Below, one piece after another: positions 3,621 to 56,689 of a DNA stretch of 64,000 bases (its first letter is position 1; each line of letters begins with the position of its first letter). This DNA comes from Gammaproteobacteria bacterium. GTDB lineage: Bacteria; Pseudomonadota; Gammaproteobacteria; Steroidobacterales; Rariloculaceae. A program made the translations under genes and the position numbers. The notes under the pieces are model-generated. The model was not told the origin of the DNA. It did no database searches and saw nothing but the letters and a program-made list of their open reading frames with translations. The DNA lies in contig JAJDVG010000037.1 in NCBI GenBank assembly GCA_022826245.1, forward strand, positions 7,470-71,469, in the 5' to 3' direction.

Positions 3621-5327
3621 CTACTGCGGACGCTGAGTCTCGCGCAAGGCCCGAAACTCGCTGGTTTCGCTCCAGGCGGGCCAGTCGTCACCGTCGGCCA
3701 GCGTCCTGCCCATCAGGTAGACAAACGCCAGGTCCTCCACCGCGCCGGTCATATCCCAGTCCGGCTTCACCTCGTCGCTGACCTTGTGGTAGTCGTTGGT
3801 GGTGTACTCGTTGCGCTTCTGCAGCCCGTATCCCTCCGGCTTGTCGATGTACTCCACGCCCGGGTCCGCATAGAACGCCGGAATGCCGGCCCTGGCGAAG
3901 GCGAAATGGTCAGAACGGTAGTAGAAGCCCTTTTCCGGTTCCGGATCGGGCGCGAGCGTGCGGCCAAGCTCCCGGGCTACCTCGGCGCCGATGTCGTCGA
4001 GTTCCGACTGACCGAGGCCGACGATGGTCAGGTCGCGAGTCCGTCCCCACTGGTTGAGCACGTCCATATTGAGCGCGGCTACGGTCTGGGCGGCCGGATA
4101 CAGCGGGTTGCGGGCGTAGTGAAGTGATCCGAGCAGCCCCTGCTCTTCCGCCGTGACGGCCAGGAACAGCACGGATCGGCGGGGTGGCTCAGGTGACAGG
4201 CTGTAGGCGCGCGCCAGTTCGATGAGTCCCGCGGTTCCGGTGGCGTTGTCGGCCGCGCCGTTGAAGATCTGGTCGCCCTCGAGACTTTCGTCGCGGCCGA
4301 GATGGTCCCAGTGGGCGACATGGATGACGACTTCGTCCGGCGCCTCGCTGCCTTCGACCTTGGCGACGACATTGCGCGAGTCGATACGGCGTATCTCGTT
4401 GCGGATTTCGATCGATCCCGTCAGGCCCAACGGGATCGGCTCGAAACCCCGGACCGCCGCCTGCTGTTTGGCGGCCTCGAAATCGAGCCCGGCCATCCCG
4501 AAGATCGTCTCGGCCGTGGCCCGCCGCACCCAACCCTCGAAGGCGGCCCGGCCCAGGTTGTCGTCCTGCGCAGCCAGGTCGAATGACTCGCCGAACGGCG
4601 TCGCGCCGATCACCTCCCACGGATAACCGGCCGGTCCGGTTTCGTGAATGACCAGCGCACCCGCGGCGCCCAGTTCCGCGGCGATCTCATGCTTGTACAC
4701 CCAGCGGCCGTAGTAGGTCATGGCCGGCCCGCCGAAGATGTCGTCGATCGGCGGATCGTTGACCAGGAACAAGAGAATCTTGCCGCTGAGATCCGCGTCG
4801 CCGAAATCATCCCAGTCGTATTCGGGCGCGCGGGCGCCGTATCCCACGAAAACGAACTCGGCGCCGTCGACGGTCACGGAATCGACCACGTGCTTGCTTA
4901 CAGCGACATAGTCCGCGGCGGGTTCCAGAGCGAGCGTCTCGGCGCCGTTGGAGACCACGAGATTCTGGGGTGGACGCGCGGTGATCCCCACCAGCGGCAC
5001 ATCCTGCACCCAGGTACCGTCCGGGTTGCCGGGTACCGCTCCAAGCGCGCTGAACCGCTCGATGAGGTAGCTCACGGTCAGTTCCTCACCCGCCGTCCCG
5101 GGCGCGCGGCCTTCGAATTCGTCCGATGACAGTATCAGAGTCTCGGCAAGCAGCGTCTCGGCGCCGATCCCTACCGCGGATACCGTCGCAGCCTCAGCCG
5201 CCGCCCCCGTGCTTGCGTTCGCCTCACCCGCATCGTCCGTCACGGATCCCGCCGTGTCATCCGGCGGGCTACCTCCGCCACACGCCACCACCAGCGTTAC
5301 ACCACCCGCCCATAACCATCGATACAT
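3621..5327 (-). CDS. M28-family metallo-aminopeptidase with PA domain, lipoprotein signal
   Basis: Motifs HWDHLG, NGAADNATGTAGLIELAR, AVTAEEQGLLGS and SDHFAFARAGIP. Start chosen at MYRWLWAGGVTLVVAC (lipobox), with GAGGA 6 nt upstream. Confidence 0.85.
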   Translation of the reverse strand: MYRWLWAGGVTLVVACGGGSPPDDTAGSVTDDAGEANASTGAAAEAATVSAVGIGAETLLAETLILSSDEFEGRAPGTAGEELTVSYLIERFSALGAVPGNPDGTWVQDVPLVGITARPPQNLVVSNGAETLALEPAADYVAVSKHVVDSVTVDGAEFVFVGYGARAPEYDWDDFGDADLSGKILLFLVNDPPIDDIFGGPAMTYYGRWVYKHEIAAELGAAGALVIHETGPAGYPWEVIGATPFGESFDLAAQDDNLGRAAFEGWVRRATAETIFGMAGLDFEAAKQQAAVRGFEPIPLGLTGSIEIRNEIRRIDSRNVVAKVEGSEAPDEVVIHVAHWDHLGRDESLEGDQIFNGAADNATGTAGLIELARAYSLSPEPPRRSVLFLAVTAEEQGLLGSLHYARNPLYPAAQTVAALNMDVLNQWGRTRDLTIVGLGQSELDDIGAEVARELGRTLAPDPEPEKGFYYRSDHFAFARAGIPAFYADPGVEYIDKPEGYGLQKRNEYTTNDYHKVSDEVKPDWDMTGAVEDLAFVYLMGRTLADGDDWPAWSETSEFRALRETQRPQ

Positions 5328-5818: not shown

Positions 5819-6209
5819 CAGCGGCCCGTTGGTAGCGTCGGTCAACGTTGCAGACCCCGATCATGCAGCGTGCGTCAAGGCCTTGTCAGGTGGCGGAATC
5901 GACATCGTCATACCGGCATTGTGCGTGGCCGAAGTCGCCTGGTTTCTTGGCAAACGCCACGGCGCGGACATCGAAGCCGTTTTTCTGGAAGGGTTGACGG
6001 ATTTCCCGGTGATTGCGCCTGACCCGGATGACTGGATGCGCATTGCAGGCCTCGTTCGCCGGTACGCGGACTTGCCGCTGGGCACCGTGGACGCGTCCGT
6101 GGCCGTGTTGGCGATGAGGCTCGGCACCGACCATATCATCACGCTCGACCGCCGGCACTTCACCGTCCTTCGCAATGCACAGGGCAAGCAATTCCAGCTT
6201 TCCCCCTGA
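5802..6209 (+). CDS. vapC: PIN-domain ribonuclease toxin VapC
   Basis: 135 aa with the conserved acidic residues in the expected places (LAIADSG, CVAEVAWF, TVDASV, TLDRRHF). Confidence 0.85.
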   Translation: MLAIADSGPLVASVNVADPDHAACVKALSGGGIDIVIPALCVAEVAWFLGKRHGADIEAVFLEGLTDFPVIAPDPDDWMRIAGLVRRYADLPLGTVDASVAVLAMRLGTDHIITLDRRHFTVLRNAQGKQFQLSP

Positions 6210-50139: not shown

Positions 50140-50444
50140 AAGCCGCCTTGTCCATATCGGAAACGCGATGTCGGGCGACCGGTTGGTCTTTCAGTCGGGG
50201 AGCGAGCATATAGGAATGATTTTTGTTTGTAAACGCGAATCGTTCGTATTTGCATTTGAAGCAATCGAGGCGGCGCAGCTTCCGGGCCCAGAGCTTGCGC
50301 GTGCGTTACGGATATCCGGGTGGAGCCGGGCGAGCGCCGCGGAGTGCAGCGCCGATGATCGGACACAGTGTCGGAGCGTACCGGCACTATCTGTCGGGGC
50401 TACCAAAGTTTGATTTACGGCACCATAAAAAATACCATTCTGGC

Positions 50445-50711
50445 ATGAACACTACCATTGACGGCGCCGGACGACTCGTCATACCGAAAAAGCTCCGCGA
50501 CCGGTTCAACCTGACCCAGGGCTGCGCGGTCGAGATCAGCGCCGGCGCGAACGGCATAACGATTCGCAAGGCCGGCCAGGAACCGGCGCTGATCCGCAAA
50601 CACGGCATCCTCGTGCACCATGGCATGGAGCGCACCGGGCTTGACATCGGCGAATTCGTCCGCGCCGAACGCAATGCCCGGCACGCCCGTTTCGGGGTGG
50701 ACGCCGGCTAA
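50445..50711 (+). CDS. vapB: AbrB/SpoVT-fold antitoxin
   Basis: MNTTIDGAGRLVIPKKLRDRFNL is the swapped-hairpin AbrB motif; lies upstream of a PIN gene. Confidence 0.75.
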   Translation: MNTTIDGAGRLVIPKKLRDRFNLTQGCAVEISAGANGITIRKAGQEPALIRKHGILVHHGMERTGLDIGEFVRAERNARHARFGVDAG

Positions 50712-50791
50712 GCCCGAATCGACCCCCGCTCGTGAACGGTTTCGTTGCAAACGCCACGCGGCGTCCCCGTCCACGGTCGATTTCCGGATAG

Positions 50792-51223
50792 ATGCGCACG
50801 CTGTTCGACACGTCCGTCATCGTGGCCGCACTGGTGGATCAACTGGGCAGTCACCGGCCGGCCTTCAACGCATTCCGGCAATTCACGGAAGGAGACCACG
50901 TCGGCTGGTGCTCGACGCACGCGCTCGCCGAGTGCTACGCGACGTTGACCGCTCTGCCTTTGGCGCAGCGCATCACGCCGGAGCAAGCCCGTCTCCTCAT
51001 CGAGGACACGGTCCTCGGCAGGCTCACCGTCATACCGCTGACTGCGGCCGACTACCGGGCGGTGCTCCGCGAAGTCGCGACCATCGGGCTCGGCAGCGGC
51101 GCCGTCTACGATGCGCTGCATGTCCGTTGCGCGCGCAAGAAGCGCGTCGACCGAATCCTGACCTACAACGTGTCGGATTTCGAGCGGTTCGACCTCGGCG
51201 AAGTGCTTCTCGCGACGCCTTGA
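50792..51223 (+). CDS. vapC: PIN-domain toxin VapC
   Basis: MRTLFDTSVIVAAL, LAECYATL, VYDALHV and YNVSDFERF acidic-residue pattern. Confidence 0.85.
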   Translation: MRTLFDTSVIVAALVDQLGSHRPAFNAFRQFTEGDHVGWCSTHALAECYATLTALPLAQRITPEQARLLIEDTVLGRLTVIPLTAADYRAVLREVATIGLGSGAVYDALHVRCARKKRVDRILTYNVSDFERFDLGEVLLATP

Positions 51224-51409
51224 CGCCTACGGATCGAACTTCGAGTCAGGGACCCGTCGCCTGCGTCATCGAGCGGGCTCAGGTCCGATCGGGACGCTTA
51301 CGTCACCTGCGGGTTCACTCGCTCGCCGATCGCTACAGGCGGGTCCAGTCGGCGTGGACCGTGCAGGCATCCGAGAACGTGTCGAGCTTCGCCTTGAGTT
51401 GGTCAAGCG

Positions 51410-52333
51410 TCACTTGCCGAGTATCCGGCGTTCAATGAGATCGGAGAATGCAGGGTTGAGCTCGATGCCCACCCACCGCCTCCGCAGACACTCGGCAGCG
51501 AGCAAAGTCGTGCCCGAGCCCGCGTACGGATCCAGAACGACGTCATCAGGAGCGCTGGTTATCGAAACACAGCGTCGCGCAAGCGTGAGAGGCATCATGG
51601 CCGGATGGTCGTCAACCTCGCCGTTTTTGCGCTTGACGGGCTCCGTGGGTATCTACCAGACGGTACGCAGCCTCCTGTTGTTGGGGCCGACAACCGCACT
51701 CGTGTCGTAGTAATAGTCCTGTTCCTTCGAGAGCAGGAACACTGTTTCGTGAGCCTTGGTGGGCCGATCCCGCACCGATTCGGGATGGGCGTTGGGTTTG
51801 TGCCAGACAACTTCGCTACGGATCCACCAGCCGGCATCCTGGAGCGCAAGTGCCAGGCGCCACGGAACGCCAATGAGGTCCTTGGGCTTCAGTCCGTCCG
51901 GCGTACGCGGTCGAACGCCCATGGCTCGCACACGGTTCTTGCGGTCCGGCGCGCGATAGCGCCTGTTGCCGGACGTATAGGAATCGCCGACGTTGAGCCA
52001 CACCGTCCCGTCTCGCCGAAGCACGCGACGCAACTCGTCGAAGGCTTCGACGATGCTGTCGATGTAGGAGCGCAAGGTGTCGTCACGCCCGATCTGATCA
52101 TCGACCTGGTAGTCCCTGAGGGACCAGTACGGCGGCGAGGTCACGACAGTTTGCACGGACTCCGTCGGCAGCAGGCTCAGCGCGCTCCGGGCATCGCCAC
52201 AGATCAACAGGGATTCCGAGATTTCAGTCAGTTGGCGGGAACTGTCCGTAAGGCGCCGGTAGGGACCTGGAGCGAACAGCGCGGGCGTCGGCAATGCGCT
52301 GTCGACGTCCGGCTTGGTGGGTGCGTCGCTCAT
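51410..52333 (-). pseudogene. Beta-class DNA methyltransferase (SPPY motif IV, N4-cytosine-like) interrupted by one in-frame TAG
   Basis: Track ORFs 51653..52333 and 51410..51598 are in the same frame. Across the TAG at 51653-51655 the translation reads ...RRLRTVW*IPTEPVKRKNGEVDDHPAMMPLTLARRC...VLDPYAGSGTT. Motif IV (TSPPYW) precedes motif I. Confidence 0.8.
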
Positions 52334-52528
52334 CCGAAGAGTGTCGTGCGCTTCGTGGTCGAATCATACTTGAACTGGACGCGCCTCGGCGAAGCGACGA
52401 AACGGCGCATATTTCACGGTTTCGCGCGCCCGAGGTGCGTAAAATCGTTCGCACTACGGACGCGATTGAAAGCCTGCGCAGCCAAGCCCGCAGTGCGATT
52501 CGCAACTTGGGGCTCTTCCGGATGGGGC

Positions 52529-52619
52529 TGGCGGAGAGGGAGGGATTCGAACCCTCGAAGGGCTATCAACCCTTACTCCCTTAGCAGGGGAGCGCTTTCA
52601 GCCACTCAGCCACCTCTCC
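52529..52619 (-). tRNA. tRNA-Ser (anticodon GCU)
   Basis: 91 nt, acceptor GGAGAGG/CCTCTCC, anticodon loop CTGCTAA, long variable arm, T-loop GGTTCGAATCC, CCA encoded. Confidence 0.9.
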
Positions 52620-52631
52620 GTTCGGTCTCGC

Positions 52632-52689
52632 GCCAACGGCACTTCGTCGGCAGCGTGATTCTAGCCGCTGCGGACGCAAATGGGGACCG
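52632..52689 (-). repeat. Upstream (promoter-like) segment of tRNA-Ser, copy A
   Basis: 49 of 58 positions identical to 53400..53457. Contains a minus-strand TAGAAT at 52658-52663 and the inverted repeat GCAGCG-N10-CGCTGC. Confidence 0.8.
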
Positions 52690-52694
52690 CGAAC

Positions 52695-53297
52695 TCATCG
52701 GCCGCACTCGGCCTCGACGCCCGCTGCAAACCGATCGACTTCACGAGCCGAGCTTAGCGTAACGAAGCGTATGTGCGCCCAGCGCGGGTCTTTCGTCGCG
52801 GCGCGCATCGACTTCCGCCAGCGGCGCTGGTTGATGAGGATCCAGTAGACGAGCGAGTCTTCCTTGCGCCAGAAAGCGAGTTGCGGCCAGAACCGTTCGA
52901 CGTTGGTGCCCCACAGCAGTTCCCTGGTGCGCGCGCGCTGCCACGAACGTCGCAGCGCCCGCCAGATGAGCTGCGGCAGCGGCAAGTCCAGCCAGATTAC
53001 CGTGTCAATGCGCGGCCAGAACGCTTGTTGCGTGAAGCGCTTGTAGTTGCCGGCGACAACCCATGCGTCGCCGTACGTCGCCTGCTCGATGCGGCGCAGC
53101 AACTCGTCCGGGTTCGTCTCATTGAGACCCACCCAATCGGGCAGCCAGTTGAGCGCGTCGAGTTCGACGAACTCCGCATCGAGCGCCTTGGCCAGTCGCC
53201 TGGCGAGCGTGCTCTTGCCGGTGTTGCTGTTTCCCATCACCTGGATGCGACGGCCGATCGGCGCTCTCGACGGACACTTGATGGACGTGGATTTCAT
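52695..53297 (-). CDS. P-loop NTPase / adenylate-kinase-like (topology modulation FlaR-like) protein
   Basis: Walker A GNSNTGKSTLARRLA; about 200 aa, a typical small kinase-fold size. Confidence 0.65.
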   Translation of the reverse strand: MKSTSIKCPSRAPIGRRIQVMGNSNTGKSTLARRLAKALDAEFVELDALNWLPDWVGLNETNPDELLRRIEQATYGDAWVVAGNYKRFTQQAFWPRIDTVIWLDLPLPQLIWRALRRSWQRARTRELLWGTNVERFWPQLAFWRKEDSLVYWILINQRRWRKSMRAATKDPRWAHIRFVTLSSAREVDRFAAGVEAECGR

Positions 53298-53387
53298 GCG
53301 CTGGAGATCGGGGCGAACCGTCGCAAGGCCATGGACCTTTATTGCATTGGCAGGAGGGGCGCTTTCGAGAACTCGGTCACGTTACCG
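53298..53387 (-). pseudogene. Decayed copy of tRNA-Ser (pseudo-tRNA)
   Basis: Aligns along its whole length with the tRNA-Ser at 52529..52619, for example GTGACCGAG/GTGGCTGAG, CGAAAGCGC/TGAAAGCGC, CCTGCCAA/CCTGCTAA and GGTTCG. The acceptor and anticodon stems no longer pair. It ends directly at the kinase ATG. Confidence 0.55.
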
Positions 53388-53399
53388 GCCGGGGTGTTT

Positions 53400-53457
53400 G
53401 CCAATAGCAACTCGCCGGCAGCGTGATTCCAGCCGCTGCGGAAACAAACGGGGACCG
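53400..53457 (-). repeat. Upstream (promoter-like) segment, copy B
   Basis: 49 of 58 positions identical to 52632..52689; TGGAAT replaces TAGAAT. Confidence 0.8.
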
Positions 53458-53474
53458 GCAGCCCCCATGTGACG

Positions 53475-53690
53475 CTATTGAGCCGTTCCGCCGACGAGCT
53501 TCGGACGTTCGGATTCCTTCTCCGCCTGTTCGCGTTTGATTCGCTCGTAGATCTCTTCGCGGTGCACCGCCACGTCGCGCGGCGCGTTGATGCCGAGACT
53601 CACCTGATTGCCCTTCACGCCGAGCACGGTCACGGTGACGTCATCGCCGATGATCACCGTCTCTCCAACCCTGCGGGTCAAGATCAGCAT
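53475..53690 (-). CDS. csrA: Carbon storage regulator CsrA
   Basis: [48 protein letters not shown]. Confidence 0.95.
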
Positions 53691-54010
53691 AGCCAAACTC
53701 CTTCTCGGTCTCCGCCGCCCGTCCCTTCTTCGCGCATCCGAGCGCGACACGCCCATAGGGGGGGTCGGGCGACCACCTTTCAGACCCGGAATCATCACAG
53801 GCATGCGCAGTCGGAACACGCCGGACTCCGGGATGTCCTTGGCAAGGCCGGCCGCTGTTTTCATTGTTATAAATCGCAGCCGGTCCCCCTGTGAAGCGCC
53901 CTTCCGAGAGCGCACTTCACTTCAGGCTATGGTAATGCTTTTCGGCACGCAGTGACCGGATTTGCGTGTTGATCGTTGCGTCGACCCGGATTCGGGCCGT
54001 GACGGAAGGT

Positions 54011-56689
54011 TCAGATCAGCGTCCGAACGAGCGCGAGTGCCTCGTCGAGCTTGTCGGGCAGCGTACCGCCGGCCTGCGCGAAGTCGGGCCGGCCGCCGCC
54101 GTTACCGCCCACGCACTCGGCAACGGGCTTGATGAGCTTGCCGGCGTGGAGCCGGTCGGTCAGGTCCTTTGTGACGCCGGCCACGAGATAGACCTTGTCC
54201 GCCTCGACGCTGCCGAGCACGACGACCCCGGAACGGAGCTTGTCCTTGAAACGGTCGGCGGCACTACGCAGTGCCTTGACGTCGGCGCCGTCAAGCCGTG
54301 CGACTAGCAGTTGCACGCCGTTGACCTCCTCGGTCTCGTCGAGCAGATCCCGGCTTCCACCGGTCGCGAGGCTGCTCTTGAGCTTCGCGACCTCGCGTTC
54401 GAGATTCCTTGCGCGCTCGATGAGCTGGACGACCTTGTCGCTGACATCGTCGCGGCTGCCCTTGACGAGTCCGGCCACTTCCCTGAGCACGGTTTCGCCG
54501 GCGTTGACCCAGGCGAGCGCTCCGCGTCCGGTCACGGCTTCGATACGGCGTTGACCCGCGGCGATGCCCGACTCCGACGTGATCTTGAAGAGCCCAATAT
54601 CGCCGGCGCGGCTGACGTGCGTGCCGCCGCAGAGTTCCGTCGAGAACTCGCCGAGGGTCAGCACTCTAACGTCGTCGCCGTACTTGTCGCCGAAGAACGC
54701 GATCGCACCGGCAGCAATCGCTTCGTCGAAGGGCAGCACGCGGGTTTCGGCCGCCGTATTCAGGCGGATCTGCTCGTTGACGAGCGCCTCGATCTCTGCG
54801 AGTTCGTCGTTGGCGACGGGCTCGTAATGCGAAAAGTCGAAGCGCAACCGGTCTGGAGCAACGAGCGAGCCCTTCTGCTGCACATGCGAGCCCAGGACCT
54901 CGCGCAGCGCGGCATGCAGGAGATGCGTAGCGGAATGGTTCAGGACGGTGGCCGCGCGGCGCTTAGCATCGACCGACGCGGTAATCTTGGCGCCGACCAC
55001 AAGCTCGCCCAAGGTAAGCGAACCGAAGTGTCCGTGTGCCGCGTCGAGCTTTCGCGTGTCGGTGACGCGAAACTCGGCCGCCGCGCCGAACAGCTCGTGG
55101 GGGGTGTCCGACAAGCGGCCAGTGTAGCCCGACATGCGTGTCATGTCGTCAGCGAAACGGCCAGGCTCGGCCAACAAACGACCTGTATCACCGACCTGCC
55201 CGCCGCTCTCGGCATAAAACGGCGTACGATCGAGCACGACGATCCCGGTATCCCCCTCCCCGAGCCGCTCGACCGGATTCGCCTCGGCATCGAAGAGCGC
55301 CACAATCTCGCCATCGGCTTCAAGGCACTCGTACCCCAAAAACTCCGTCTCTTCACTCAGCGACGGCAAATCATGCGCCAGCGCCTCAAAGCGGCTCGCC
55401 TGCCTCGACCGCGTCCGCTGCCCCTTCATCGCCCGCTCAAACCCATCGCGGTCCACGCTGAGCCCCCGCTCCCTCGCGATGTCGGCGGTCAGATCCTCAG
55501 GGAATCCATAGGTATCGTAGAGTTTGAACACCGTCTCGCCCGGCAACGCCGCCCCACTCGGCAGATCGGCAATGGCGCCCTCAAGCAGCCGCATGCCCTT
55601 GTCGAGGGTCTCCGCGAACCGCTCTTCCTCTTGCAGCAGCACGCGCTCGACGTGCTCGCGATGTTCCGTGAGTTCGGGATACGCCTGCCCCATCTCGGCA
55701 TTGAGGCTCGCCACGAGTGAATGGAAGAATGGCTCCTCGACGCCGAGCTTGTAGCCGTGCCGCAGGGCGCGGCGGATGATCCGGCGCAGCACGTAGCCGC
55801 GGCCCTCATTGCCGGGTAGAACGCCGTCGACGATCAGGAACGAGCAGGCGCGGATGTGATCGACGATGACTCTGAGAGAATTGCTGCTGAGATCCTGAGC
55901 CCCGGTCGCCGCGGCCGCCGCTCCGATGAGACTCCGGAAGAGATCCGTATCGTAGACCGAATGCACGCCCTGCATGACAGCCGAAAGCCGCTCGAGCCCC
56001 ATGCCCGTGTCGACCGACGGCTTCGGCAGCGGCACGAGTTCGCCTTCGGCATTGCGGTCGAACTGCATGAACACGAGGTTCCAGACCTCGACATAGCGGT
56101 CGCCGTCGTCGTCACCCGAGCCCGGCGGCCCGCCGGCAACGCCGTCGCCGTGGTCGTAGAATATTTCCGAACAGGGGCCGCACGGCCCCGTGTCGCCCAT
56201 CGACCAGAAGTTGTCGTCCTCGCCCAGTCGGGCGAAGCGGCGCTTGTCGAGGCCGATGTCGTCGAGCCAGATGGACGCGGCTTCGTCGTCGTCGAGATAG
56301 ACGGTGCCCCAGAGGCGCTCGGCCGGCAGACCGAGCACGTCGGTCATGAACTCCCAGGCGTAGCGGATCGCGTCGCGCTTGAAGTAGTCGCCGAAACTGA
56401 AGTTGCCGAGCATCTCGAAGAAGGTGAGATGCCGGTCCGTGTAGCCGACGTTTTCCAGGTCGTTGTGTTTGCCCCCGGCCCGCATGACGCGCTGTGCCGT
56501 CACCGCCCGCCTTGAGGCGCGCGACTCGCGACCGAGGAAAACGTCCTTGAACTGCACCATCCCGGCATTGGTAAACAGCAGGGTCGGATCGTTGGCCGGG
56601 ACGAGCGGCGAACTCGGCACGATTTCGTGATCGCGCGCGGCGAAGTATTCGAGAAAAGCCTTGCGCAGTTCGTTGCTTGAGTGATTCAT
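54011..56689 (-). CDS. alaS: Alanine--tRNA ligase
   Basis: 892 aa, full-length AlaRS ([19 protein letters not shown] editing motif). Confidence 0.97.

Follow-up and report, generated by a model that had tools for sequence, protein, structure and literature searches.

Insertions that restore the 5′ end of a tRNA gene, in what is called the reverse orientation, are known but infrequent, according to PMC6563490, which cites Zhao & Williams 2002. The locus reported here, in which two copies of a promoter–tRNA-Ser(GCU) block enclose a P-loop kinase-like gene downstream of csrA, is best classed as a degraded instance of this rare, previously described kind of insertion, in which one cargo gene was domesticated. 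It lies in a window of 64,000 nt, that is, the whole stretch of DNA that was analyzed, which is contig C17 of an assembly of 3.6 Mb in 62 contigs (genome G000). L-numbers designate loci and G-numbers genomes, among them G003, the representative of the genus, Candidatus Rariloculus (Candidatus Rariloculus versatilis, a gammaproteobacterium).

Reverse-orientation elements have several traits in common with this locus: a direct repeat made of the 5′ part of the tRNA and ending inside a tRNA loop, a truncated copy that keeps the original upstream flank, a working gene rebuilt at the far junction from incoming 5′ DNA with its promoter, and an empty site in relatives. The differences are that the present locus has no integrase or other element gene and only one cargo open reading frame (ORF), that its attachment (att) arms are unrecognizable, and that the incoming copy of a comparable locus in G001 looks native to its lineage.

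In the tRNA-dependent lysogeny of mycobacteriophages, the phage carries a separate complete tRNA gene and shares a core of ~10 bp with attB (PMC10865867). There, as here, the insertion kills the host tRNA gene and a replacement of the same isotype compensates. In contrast, the replacement at our locus consists of a 140-nt copy of promoter and 5′ part of the host type, continued by the resident 3′ end, and no phage genes were found among the neighboring ORFs in Pfam scans. The sequence after the working tRNA is alike in G001, G002, and G003, which indicates that the replacement keeps the resident 3′ end and its flank.

Classical islands at the 3′ end of tRNA genes likewise use the tRNA gene as a hot spot, and G000 also has a 2.27-kb insert 3′ of the working tRNA. 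However, in these islands it is the tRNA's 3′ part that is repeated, and the promoter-proximal gene stays intact, which is the reverse of what is seen here. Simple tandem duplication produces complete head-to-tail units with nothing foreign between them, whereas here a 603-nt apparently foreign ORF intervenes and the homology ends at nt 72 of the tRNA.

Two Copies of the Promoter–tRNA Block

The following comparisons confirmed the duplication, of which the proximal copy, next to csrA, is a dead pseudogene and the distal copy a normal tRNA gene. The repeat units (52548..52689 and 53314..53457) stand 768 nt apart with a single 200-codon P-loop ORF between them, and the duplicated 5′ block consists of an arm of the csrA terminator, the promoter, the leader, and nt 1-72 of tRNA-Ser(GCU). 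The upstream pair (52632-52689 and 53400-53457) was recovered by repeat search at 84% identity over 58 nt, that is, the 49/58 given in the original prediction, which had been made from this DNA alone. Both blocks were joined by BLASTN in a single alignment of 144 nt with 73% identity (E=2e-15 to 2e-16). The tRNA part alone has a local alignment score of 27, as against 7.8 ± 1.3 for dinucleotide shuffles (z=14.8). This score was reached by 0/5000 shuffles and equaled by 0/5000 random windows of the same genome, and the similarity claimed for the tRNA part is thus well above chance.

The genes on the minus strand follow the order alaS, csrA, terminator-like hairpin, copy 2, kinase ORF, copy 1, methylase ORF, MazE/PIN pair. 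In detail, the features are:

56689..54011, minus strand: alaS
53475..53690, minus strand: csrA, 71 amino acids (Pfam CsrA, E=1e-25), the conserved upstream neighbor of tRNA-Ser(GCU)
53441..53468, minus strand: intrinsic-terminator-like hairpin of csrA (53468..53448) with T tract, from a terminator scan
53457..53298, minus strand: block copy 2 (proximal)
53417..53444, minus strand: relic promoter core of the tRNA-Ser, with TGGAAT at 53431..53426 and a GC-rich discriminator; 25/28 identical to the working copy
53435..53417, minus strand: 19-mer within the relic promoter core, from GGCT(A/G)GAAT to CGCTGCCG, the sole well-kept piece there; 18/19 identical to the working copy
53387..53416, minus strand: decayed tRNA leader; 17/30 identical to the working leader
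53314..53386, minus strand: pseudo-tRNA-Ser, homologous to tRNA nt 1-72 and ending with GGTTCG in the T-loop, stems broken; 51/73 identical to the distal copy, no ARAGORN or Rfam match
53298..53313, minus strand: 16-nt junction CCCCGATCTCCAGCGC, of uncertain origin, with a CCCGA start as in the G001 junction
52695..53297, minus strand: P-loop NTPase/kinase-like ORF, 200 amino acids, Walker A GNSNTGKST, sole cargo between the repeats (Pfam and NCBIfam scans)
52689..52529, minus strand: block copy 1 (distal), ending in tRNA-Ser(GCU)
52620..52689, minus strand: working terminator arm, promoter (-10 TAGAAT at 52663..52658), and tRNA-Ser leader
52529..52619, minus strand: functional tRNA-Ser(GCU) (ARAGORN; Rfam tRNA, 61.4 bits)
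50258..52528, no strand assigned: G000-specific 2.27-kb insert directly 3′ of the tRNA (comparison with L083; Pfam)

Neither ARAGORN nor Rfam recognized a tRNA at 53298..53400, even at E<=10. Read along the alignment, the acceptor, D, and anticodon stems of the proximal copy are unpaired and the anticodon GCT has become GCC, in agreement with the decay that had been predicted. The first 13 nt of the duplicated block are the 3′ arm of the csrA terminator (GGTCCCC) with its T tract, identical at 12/13 positions between the copies, and the distal copy carries this arm without its partner arm. The working tRNA-Ser(GCU) is 96-100% identical across the order among the matches listed in a search of 300 genomes, and between G000 and L083 the working copy shows 4 differences in 166 nt (2.4%).

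Two other readings were rejected. An assembly artefact is ruled out by the 27% divergence of the copies and by the recurrence of the arrangement in two independent assemblies. A structured RNA in the relic is ruled out by its ordinary folding energy (z=+0.5), the small hairpins also being at z ~0.

The Ancestral Site and Relatives with the Same Arrangement

A single tRNA-Ser(GCU) lies at most 1.5 kb from csrA in 27 of the 29 loci of relatives, including those of G002 (where the gap is 90 nt) and G003, and L110. The kinase and the second copy are absent from G002 and G003, which are of the same genus, and from L110. The single csrA-linked tRNA of the relatives, together with the distal arm that has no partner, shows that the proximal copy occupies the ancestral place, as was originally proposed, and the insertion of the kinase with a second tRNA copy is likewise borne out. 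The inserted part is the material from about 53313 to 52548.

Through a protein search, kinases of 96% and 88% identity were found on contigs (L082 and L083, respectively) which show the same succession of csrA, relic, kinase, promoter, and tRNA-Ser. L082 hardly departs from the window, its differences being a single substitution and an indel of 1 nt in the dead tRNA. In the case of L083, the order is recA, recX, alaS, csrA, relic, kinase, tRNA-Ser, TonB-dependent receptor. There (6001-6130), a deletion between direct repeats TCGA(A/G)AGCGCC took most of the dead tRNA and the first ~10 codons of the kinase, ATG included. An ATG located 7 nt behind the stop codon of csrA now opens a frame that passes the terminator and the relic promoter and continues into the kinase (227-amino-acid call). 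The hexamer TGGAAT is common to G000, L082, and L083. Since the arrangement, with its relic copy, is shared by L082 and L083, the event is older than the split of these lineages.

Scans for the exact relic core GGCTGGAATCACGCTGCCG (22 matches in metagenome contigs, and 29 in genome contigs with R at the variable base) revealed no further pseudo-tRNA–kinase locus. Among these matches, csrA is carried only by G001, G003, and L110, which are single or known loci.

The 2.27-kb insert 3′ of the working tRNA (50258-52528) contains the MazE/PIN pair and an N6/N4 DNA methylase that an in-frame stop divides into ORFs 51653..52333 and 51410..51598, which share one frame. It is later, specific to G000, and not part of the duplication. 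L083 has 61 nt at this place, and synteny with the TonB-dependent receptor resumes at 50257.

The Break Point in the T-Loop

In local alignment, the significant homology of the relic to the tRNA covers nt 7-72 and stops at GGTTCG in the T-loop. The original prediction extended this homology over the whole length up to the ATG; it holds for nt 7-72, whereas the alignment does not link the 16 nt that precede the ATG (53313..53298) to the tRNA 3′ end. The final 25 nt of the tRNA were found at a single place in the window, even when 3 mismatches were allowed. The repeated part is the promoter with the 5′ 72 nt, which is the rare reverse-orientation geometry and not the classical 3′-end integration that had been put forward.

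The locus is read here, with a probability of about 0.5, as the worn-down relic of a 5′-restoring insertion into the T-loop of the csrA-linked tRNA-Ser(GCU), the kinase being cargo that was kept and is read from upstream. To judge from the structure, the incoming DNA would have brought its own promoter, leader, and the first ~72 nt of the tRNA. The outcome is visible in the sequence: the original promoter and tRNA nt 1-72 stand stranded beside csrA as a truncated gene, which has since decayed by about 30%, and on the distal side the incoming 5′ part has been joined to the resident 3′ end to give a complete gene again. Of the inserted DNA, only the P-loop kinase-like ORF is left, trimmed to its start and stop codons. 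With no integrase left, the locus is at best a relic.

Alternatively, a kinase gene and a fresh complete tRNA may have been integrated at the 3′ end of the resident tRNA, which died, while its promoter was selected for the kinase and the dead tRNA became the 5′ untranslated region (UTR). In favor of this, the ATG abuts the relic, and the length from GACGG to the ATG in the relic is exactly that of a T-arm and acceptor strand. Yet the significant homology stops at nt 72 and, considering also the state of the relic promoter (see below), such an origin appears unlikely.

Similar Scars in Other Genomes

The break in the T-loop is found again in two other genomes. In G001, a sister species of the same genus (L011, G001:C6 1140-1626), csrA is followed by the full promoter and leader and by tRNA nt 1-73 at 100% identity. 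Then comes an abrupt break, where GGTTCGA is continued by CCCGAGCC, and a 180-nt insert of short GC hairpins. The second copy runs from the -10 via the leader to the full tRNA, and the flank after it resembles those of G002 and G003. Both copies share a 14-nt leader insertion which is also present in G003. The insert matches, over its positions 41-101 and with 93% identity, an intergenic stretch of G002 located 19 kb downstream of tRNA-Ser (L084, about 4087-4146). No homology of the insert to the kinase region was found. The possibility that it is a high-copy repeat was rejected, with only 1-2 weak extra matches.

In G039, which belongs to another family, a 130-nt unit composed of 60 nt of upstream sequence and the tRNA to GGTTCG is repeated at tRNA-Ser(UGA) around a 73-nt GC-hairpin insert (L086, G039:C41 2836-3181). 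Each of these units starts with a mimic of the tRNA's own 3′ end (GAATCTCATCCCTCCCTCTCCGCA). A solo decayed 5′ fragment of tRNA-Ser (nt 1-66, 85% identity) occurs in G002 (L085, G002:C1 5846-5916), where ordinary metabolic genes border on a block with Fic/DOC, HsdM, and a toxin-antitoxin-like gene.

Three loci fit the T-loop pattern, namely the kinase ORF of G000/L082/L083, the GC-hairpin cluster of G001, and the GC-hairpin cluster at tRNA-Ser(UGA) of G039. The junction after GGTTCG reads CCCCGA in G000 and ACCCGA in G001, which is weak evidence that these two junctions may be related.

If any feature hints at something out of the ordinary, it is the T-loop break at three loci without a recombinase. 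The T-loop of tRNA-Ser in this order may be a recurrent target of an integrase-less insertion that brings a replacement promoter and 5′ tRNA, so that small cassettes sit in an essential tRNA gene and the gene survives; the 19-nt core of the dead copy, in which an A-to-G change makes GGA downstream of csrA, would then be a re-used regulatory element of the captured gene. This is offered as a speculation and is quite unlikely.

In the G000 assembly, a scar with the opposite geometry was also observed. On contig C30 (98672-101943), a 45-nt copy of the 3′ part of tRNA-Pro(CGG) is found at 98% identity 3.1 kb away, and resembles a classical att-type scar. Among the 61 tRNA genes of the assembly, several have duplicated anticodons. 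A dense tRNA array on contig C7 (47600-48120) includes, besides another tRNA-Ser(UGA), a divergent further tRNA-Ser(GCU) about 70% identical to the csrA-linked one, which is thus perhaps not alone as a GCU decoder.

The Kinase-Like Gene: Identity, Origin, and Selection

The ORF between the repeats matches Pfam AAA (27.4 bits) and SKI (22.2 bits), both just above the cut-offs, and AAA_18 below the cut-off. With the NCBIfam FlaR-type models PRK08118 and PRK07261 it scores 65 bits, the cut-offs being 215-224, and its PDB matches are at the P-loop level only. By these similarities, it is a predicted member of the AAA_18 / shikimate-kinase-like / "adenylate kinase family" / FlaR-like group. Its homologues number 876 at E<1e-40 and are named as an "adenylate kinase" family by the sources. 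At 60-66% identity, they occur in metagenome-assembled genomes (MAGs) of Bacillota, Chloroflexota, Gemmatimonadota, and Acidobacteriota. The ATG at 53297 is the first start codon of the ORF and, since the N-termini of the homologues in L052 and L053 resemble that of the kinase, very likely also the native one. The insert would then begin at this ATG and end 6 nt beyond the native stop codon.

The identities of the kinase and of alaS to those of G000 were compared in three genomes:

G304 (L070): kinase 75%, alaS about 54-59%
G303 (L053): kinase 70%, alaS about 56-60%
G007 (same family): kinase 64%, alaS 71%

The kinase is thus 70-75% identical to those of genomes whose alaS identity is only about 54-62%. 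Because its similarity is out of step with that of alaS, the kinase was probably acquired horizontally. Its GC content and that of its third codon positions (GC3) match the host. G000 holds one kinase copy, and the gene is absent from G001-G003 and from most of the family.

Kinase homologues are found downstream of csrA–tRNA-Ser in other genomes as well. In two gammaproteobacterial MAGs (L056, 1678-3552, and L078, 261-3546), csrA, tRNA-Arg(ACG), and tRNA-Ser(GCU) are followed 0.9-2.3 kb on by a kinase homologue of 65-66% identity, and in G007 and G020 the homologue is 24-25 kb downstream of the tRNA. The region after the csrA-linked tRNA-Ser is a general hot spot. This synteny, close in L056 and L078 and at a distance in G007 and G020, would suit an old adjacency of tRNA and kinase, in which a second promoter–tRNA unit arose downstream, for instance by tandem duplication of tRNA and kinase with loss of the second kinase, and the first tRNA decayed. 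Such a course is very unlikely: it requires an exact second deletion, it leaves G001 and G039 unexplained, and it accords neither with the absence of the kinase from G001-G003 and most of the family nor with its disagreement with alaS.

The ratio of non-synonymous to synonymous rates (dN/dS) of the kinase is 0.37 between G000 and L083 (26 synonymous and 33 non-synonymous changes; binomial p=6e-4) and 0.36 between G000 and L082. The dead tRNA, with 27% differences and at least one indel in 73 nt, was used as a neutral clock. Under this decay, a 600-nt ORF remained stop-free in 1.8% and indel-free in at most 3% of simulations. The kinase is therefore kept by purifying selection, and as such would have to be expressed.

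The Relic Promoter and Expression of the Kinase

Contrary to the original prediction, the -10-like hexamer is not preserved intact in the decayed copy, as TAGAAT of the working copy is TGGAAT in the relic. The functional copies of tRNA-Ser(GCU) that show the hexamer, from many genera, have TAGAAT, TAAAAT, or TATAAT and keep A at position 2; G at this position occurs only in the three relic copies. Of the six bases of a sigma-70 -10 hexamer, none is more critical than this A. Under a sigma-70 criterion combining A at position 2, T at position 6, and a -35 hexamer at 16-18 nt, the relic is not recognized as a promoter.

The relic block differs by 12% between G000 and L083, compared with 18% at synonymous sites of the kinase, about 10% at those of csrA, and the 2.4% of the working copy. 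Within it, the 19-nt core GGCTGGAATCACGCTGCCG stands at 18/19 against the working copy, while the leader and tRNA are 66% identical (Fisher p ~0.012). Between G000 and L083 the core has 0/19 changes and the rest of the relic differs at 14/67 sites (chance ~0.02, post hoc). The conservation of the core has a p of about 0.01-0.03, judged post hoc. The csrA terminator shows 0 changes in 29 nt between the same two loci, its T run being longer in L083. Overall, the relic evolves about neutrally apart from this terminator and the 19-nt core.

Several candidate elements were tried in this segment. The inverted repeat GCAGCG-N10-CGCTGC was rejected as a functional element: its left arm is CCTGCG in L083, it is replaced in the working copy of G001, and it is absent from most genera. 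A sigma-54 reading of TGGAAT..GC was rejected by eye, the spacing being one base short. A CsrA-binding GGA hairpin in the relic received no support from the fold.

The claim that the promoter segment was retained for the kinase can be followed only in part. The 19-nt core is well kept, but the -10 has lost its A, the relic is close to neutral, and the inverted repeat is broken in L083. That the promoter was kept to drive the kinase is weakly supported at best by these comparisons, and the relic element would be at best a weak promoter, read-through from csrA being an equally good source of transcript. A well-kept csrA terminator upstream would make a start site downstream of it useful.

The integration of a complete tRNA at the 3′ end, introduced above, draws on the same observations. 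It would be favored by the 19-nt core, at 18/19 against its paralogue and 19/19 between G000 and L083, and by a selected kinase behind a good csrA terminator, which makes some promoter necessary. It is opposed by the TGGAAT of the relic where the functional copies showing the hexamer keep A at position 2, by a relic divergence of 12% that is near the synonymous 18% and unlike the 2.4% of the working copy, by the loss of the inverted repeat in L083 and its absence from most genera, and by L083 having lost most of the dead tRNA and the kinase start with the ORF retained.

As for expression, the kinase would be without a promoter of its own and most likely transcribed from upstream at a low level. 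The candidate sources are read-through of the csrA terminator and the crippled relic promoter (TGGAAT), alone or together, and the dead tRNA would be the 5′ UTR of the kinase. Since no terminator was found after the kinase, its transcript may continue into the working tRNA-Ser gene.

Upstream of csrA, the spacer to alaS (53691-54010, the 320-nt csrA leader) differs by 2.8% between G000 and L083, as against 27.7% at the four-fold sites of alaS, which indicates strong constraint on this stretch.

Insertion or Local Rearrangement

Several points weigh against the reading of the locus as a relic of a T-loop insertion. The cargo is exactly one ORF and no att-arm sequence is recognizable. No tyrosine integrase (PF00589) was found on contig C17 or near the locus in G001, G002, G003, and G007, and Pfam scans found no recombinase domain in the neighboring ORFs. 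The 14-nt leader insertion shared by the G001 copies, which is specific to the lineage, indicates that the second copy came from the same or a very close genome, and a local origin of this copy is also compatible with a homologous or a replicative mechanism. In G000, a tRNA 3′ end may survive in decayed form in the 16 nt that follow GGTTCG, which have TCTCC in common with it; the break would then lie at the 3′ end. The kinase homologues of L056, L078, G007, and G020 could mean an old neighborhood and not an import. Also, a consensus promoter scan found no sigma-70 site.

A rival reading is a local rearrangement without a recombinase, by a Campbell-type crossover of circular or taken-up promoter–tRNA DNA or by template switching at the T-arm hairpin, with the 5′ block duplicated and filler from the neighborhood inserted (the kinase in G000, the hairpin-rich 180 nt in G001). 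The missing integrase suits this process, as do the near-identity of the G001 copies with the insertion they share with G003, the 93% identity of part of the G001 filler to G002 sequence 19 kb downstream of tRNA-Ser, and the presence of kinase homologues 0.9-25 kb downstream of csrA–tRNA-Ser in the four relatives. However, a break recurring in the T-loop at three separate loci speaks for a site-specific process, only one kinase copy exists in G000, the kinase similarities point to a foreign origin, and the boundaries of the insert are the ends of the ORF. A local rearrangement is for these reasons unlikely.

Significance

As a 5′-restoring insertion, the locus is a clean and datable case of a tRNA gene that was split by an insertion which restores its 5′ end and promoter and not its 3′ end. 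Standard island finders seek 3′ tRNA repeats beside an integrase, and scars of this kind are probably missed by them. For a reading made from the sequence only, the locus is an indication that a "preserved promoter" can conceal a change at its most important base. The dead tRNA acts as an internal neutral clock which reveals the selection on the kinase. In this lineage, a single cargo gene has outlived its vehicle and would now be reliant on borrowed upstream signals.

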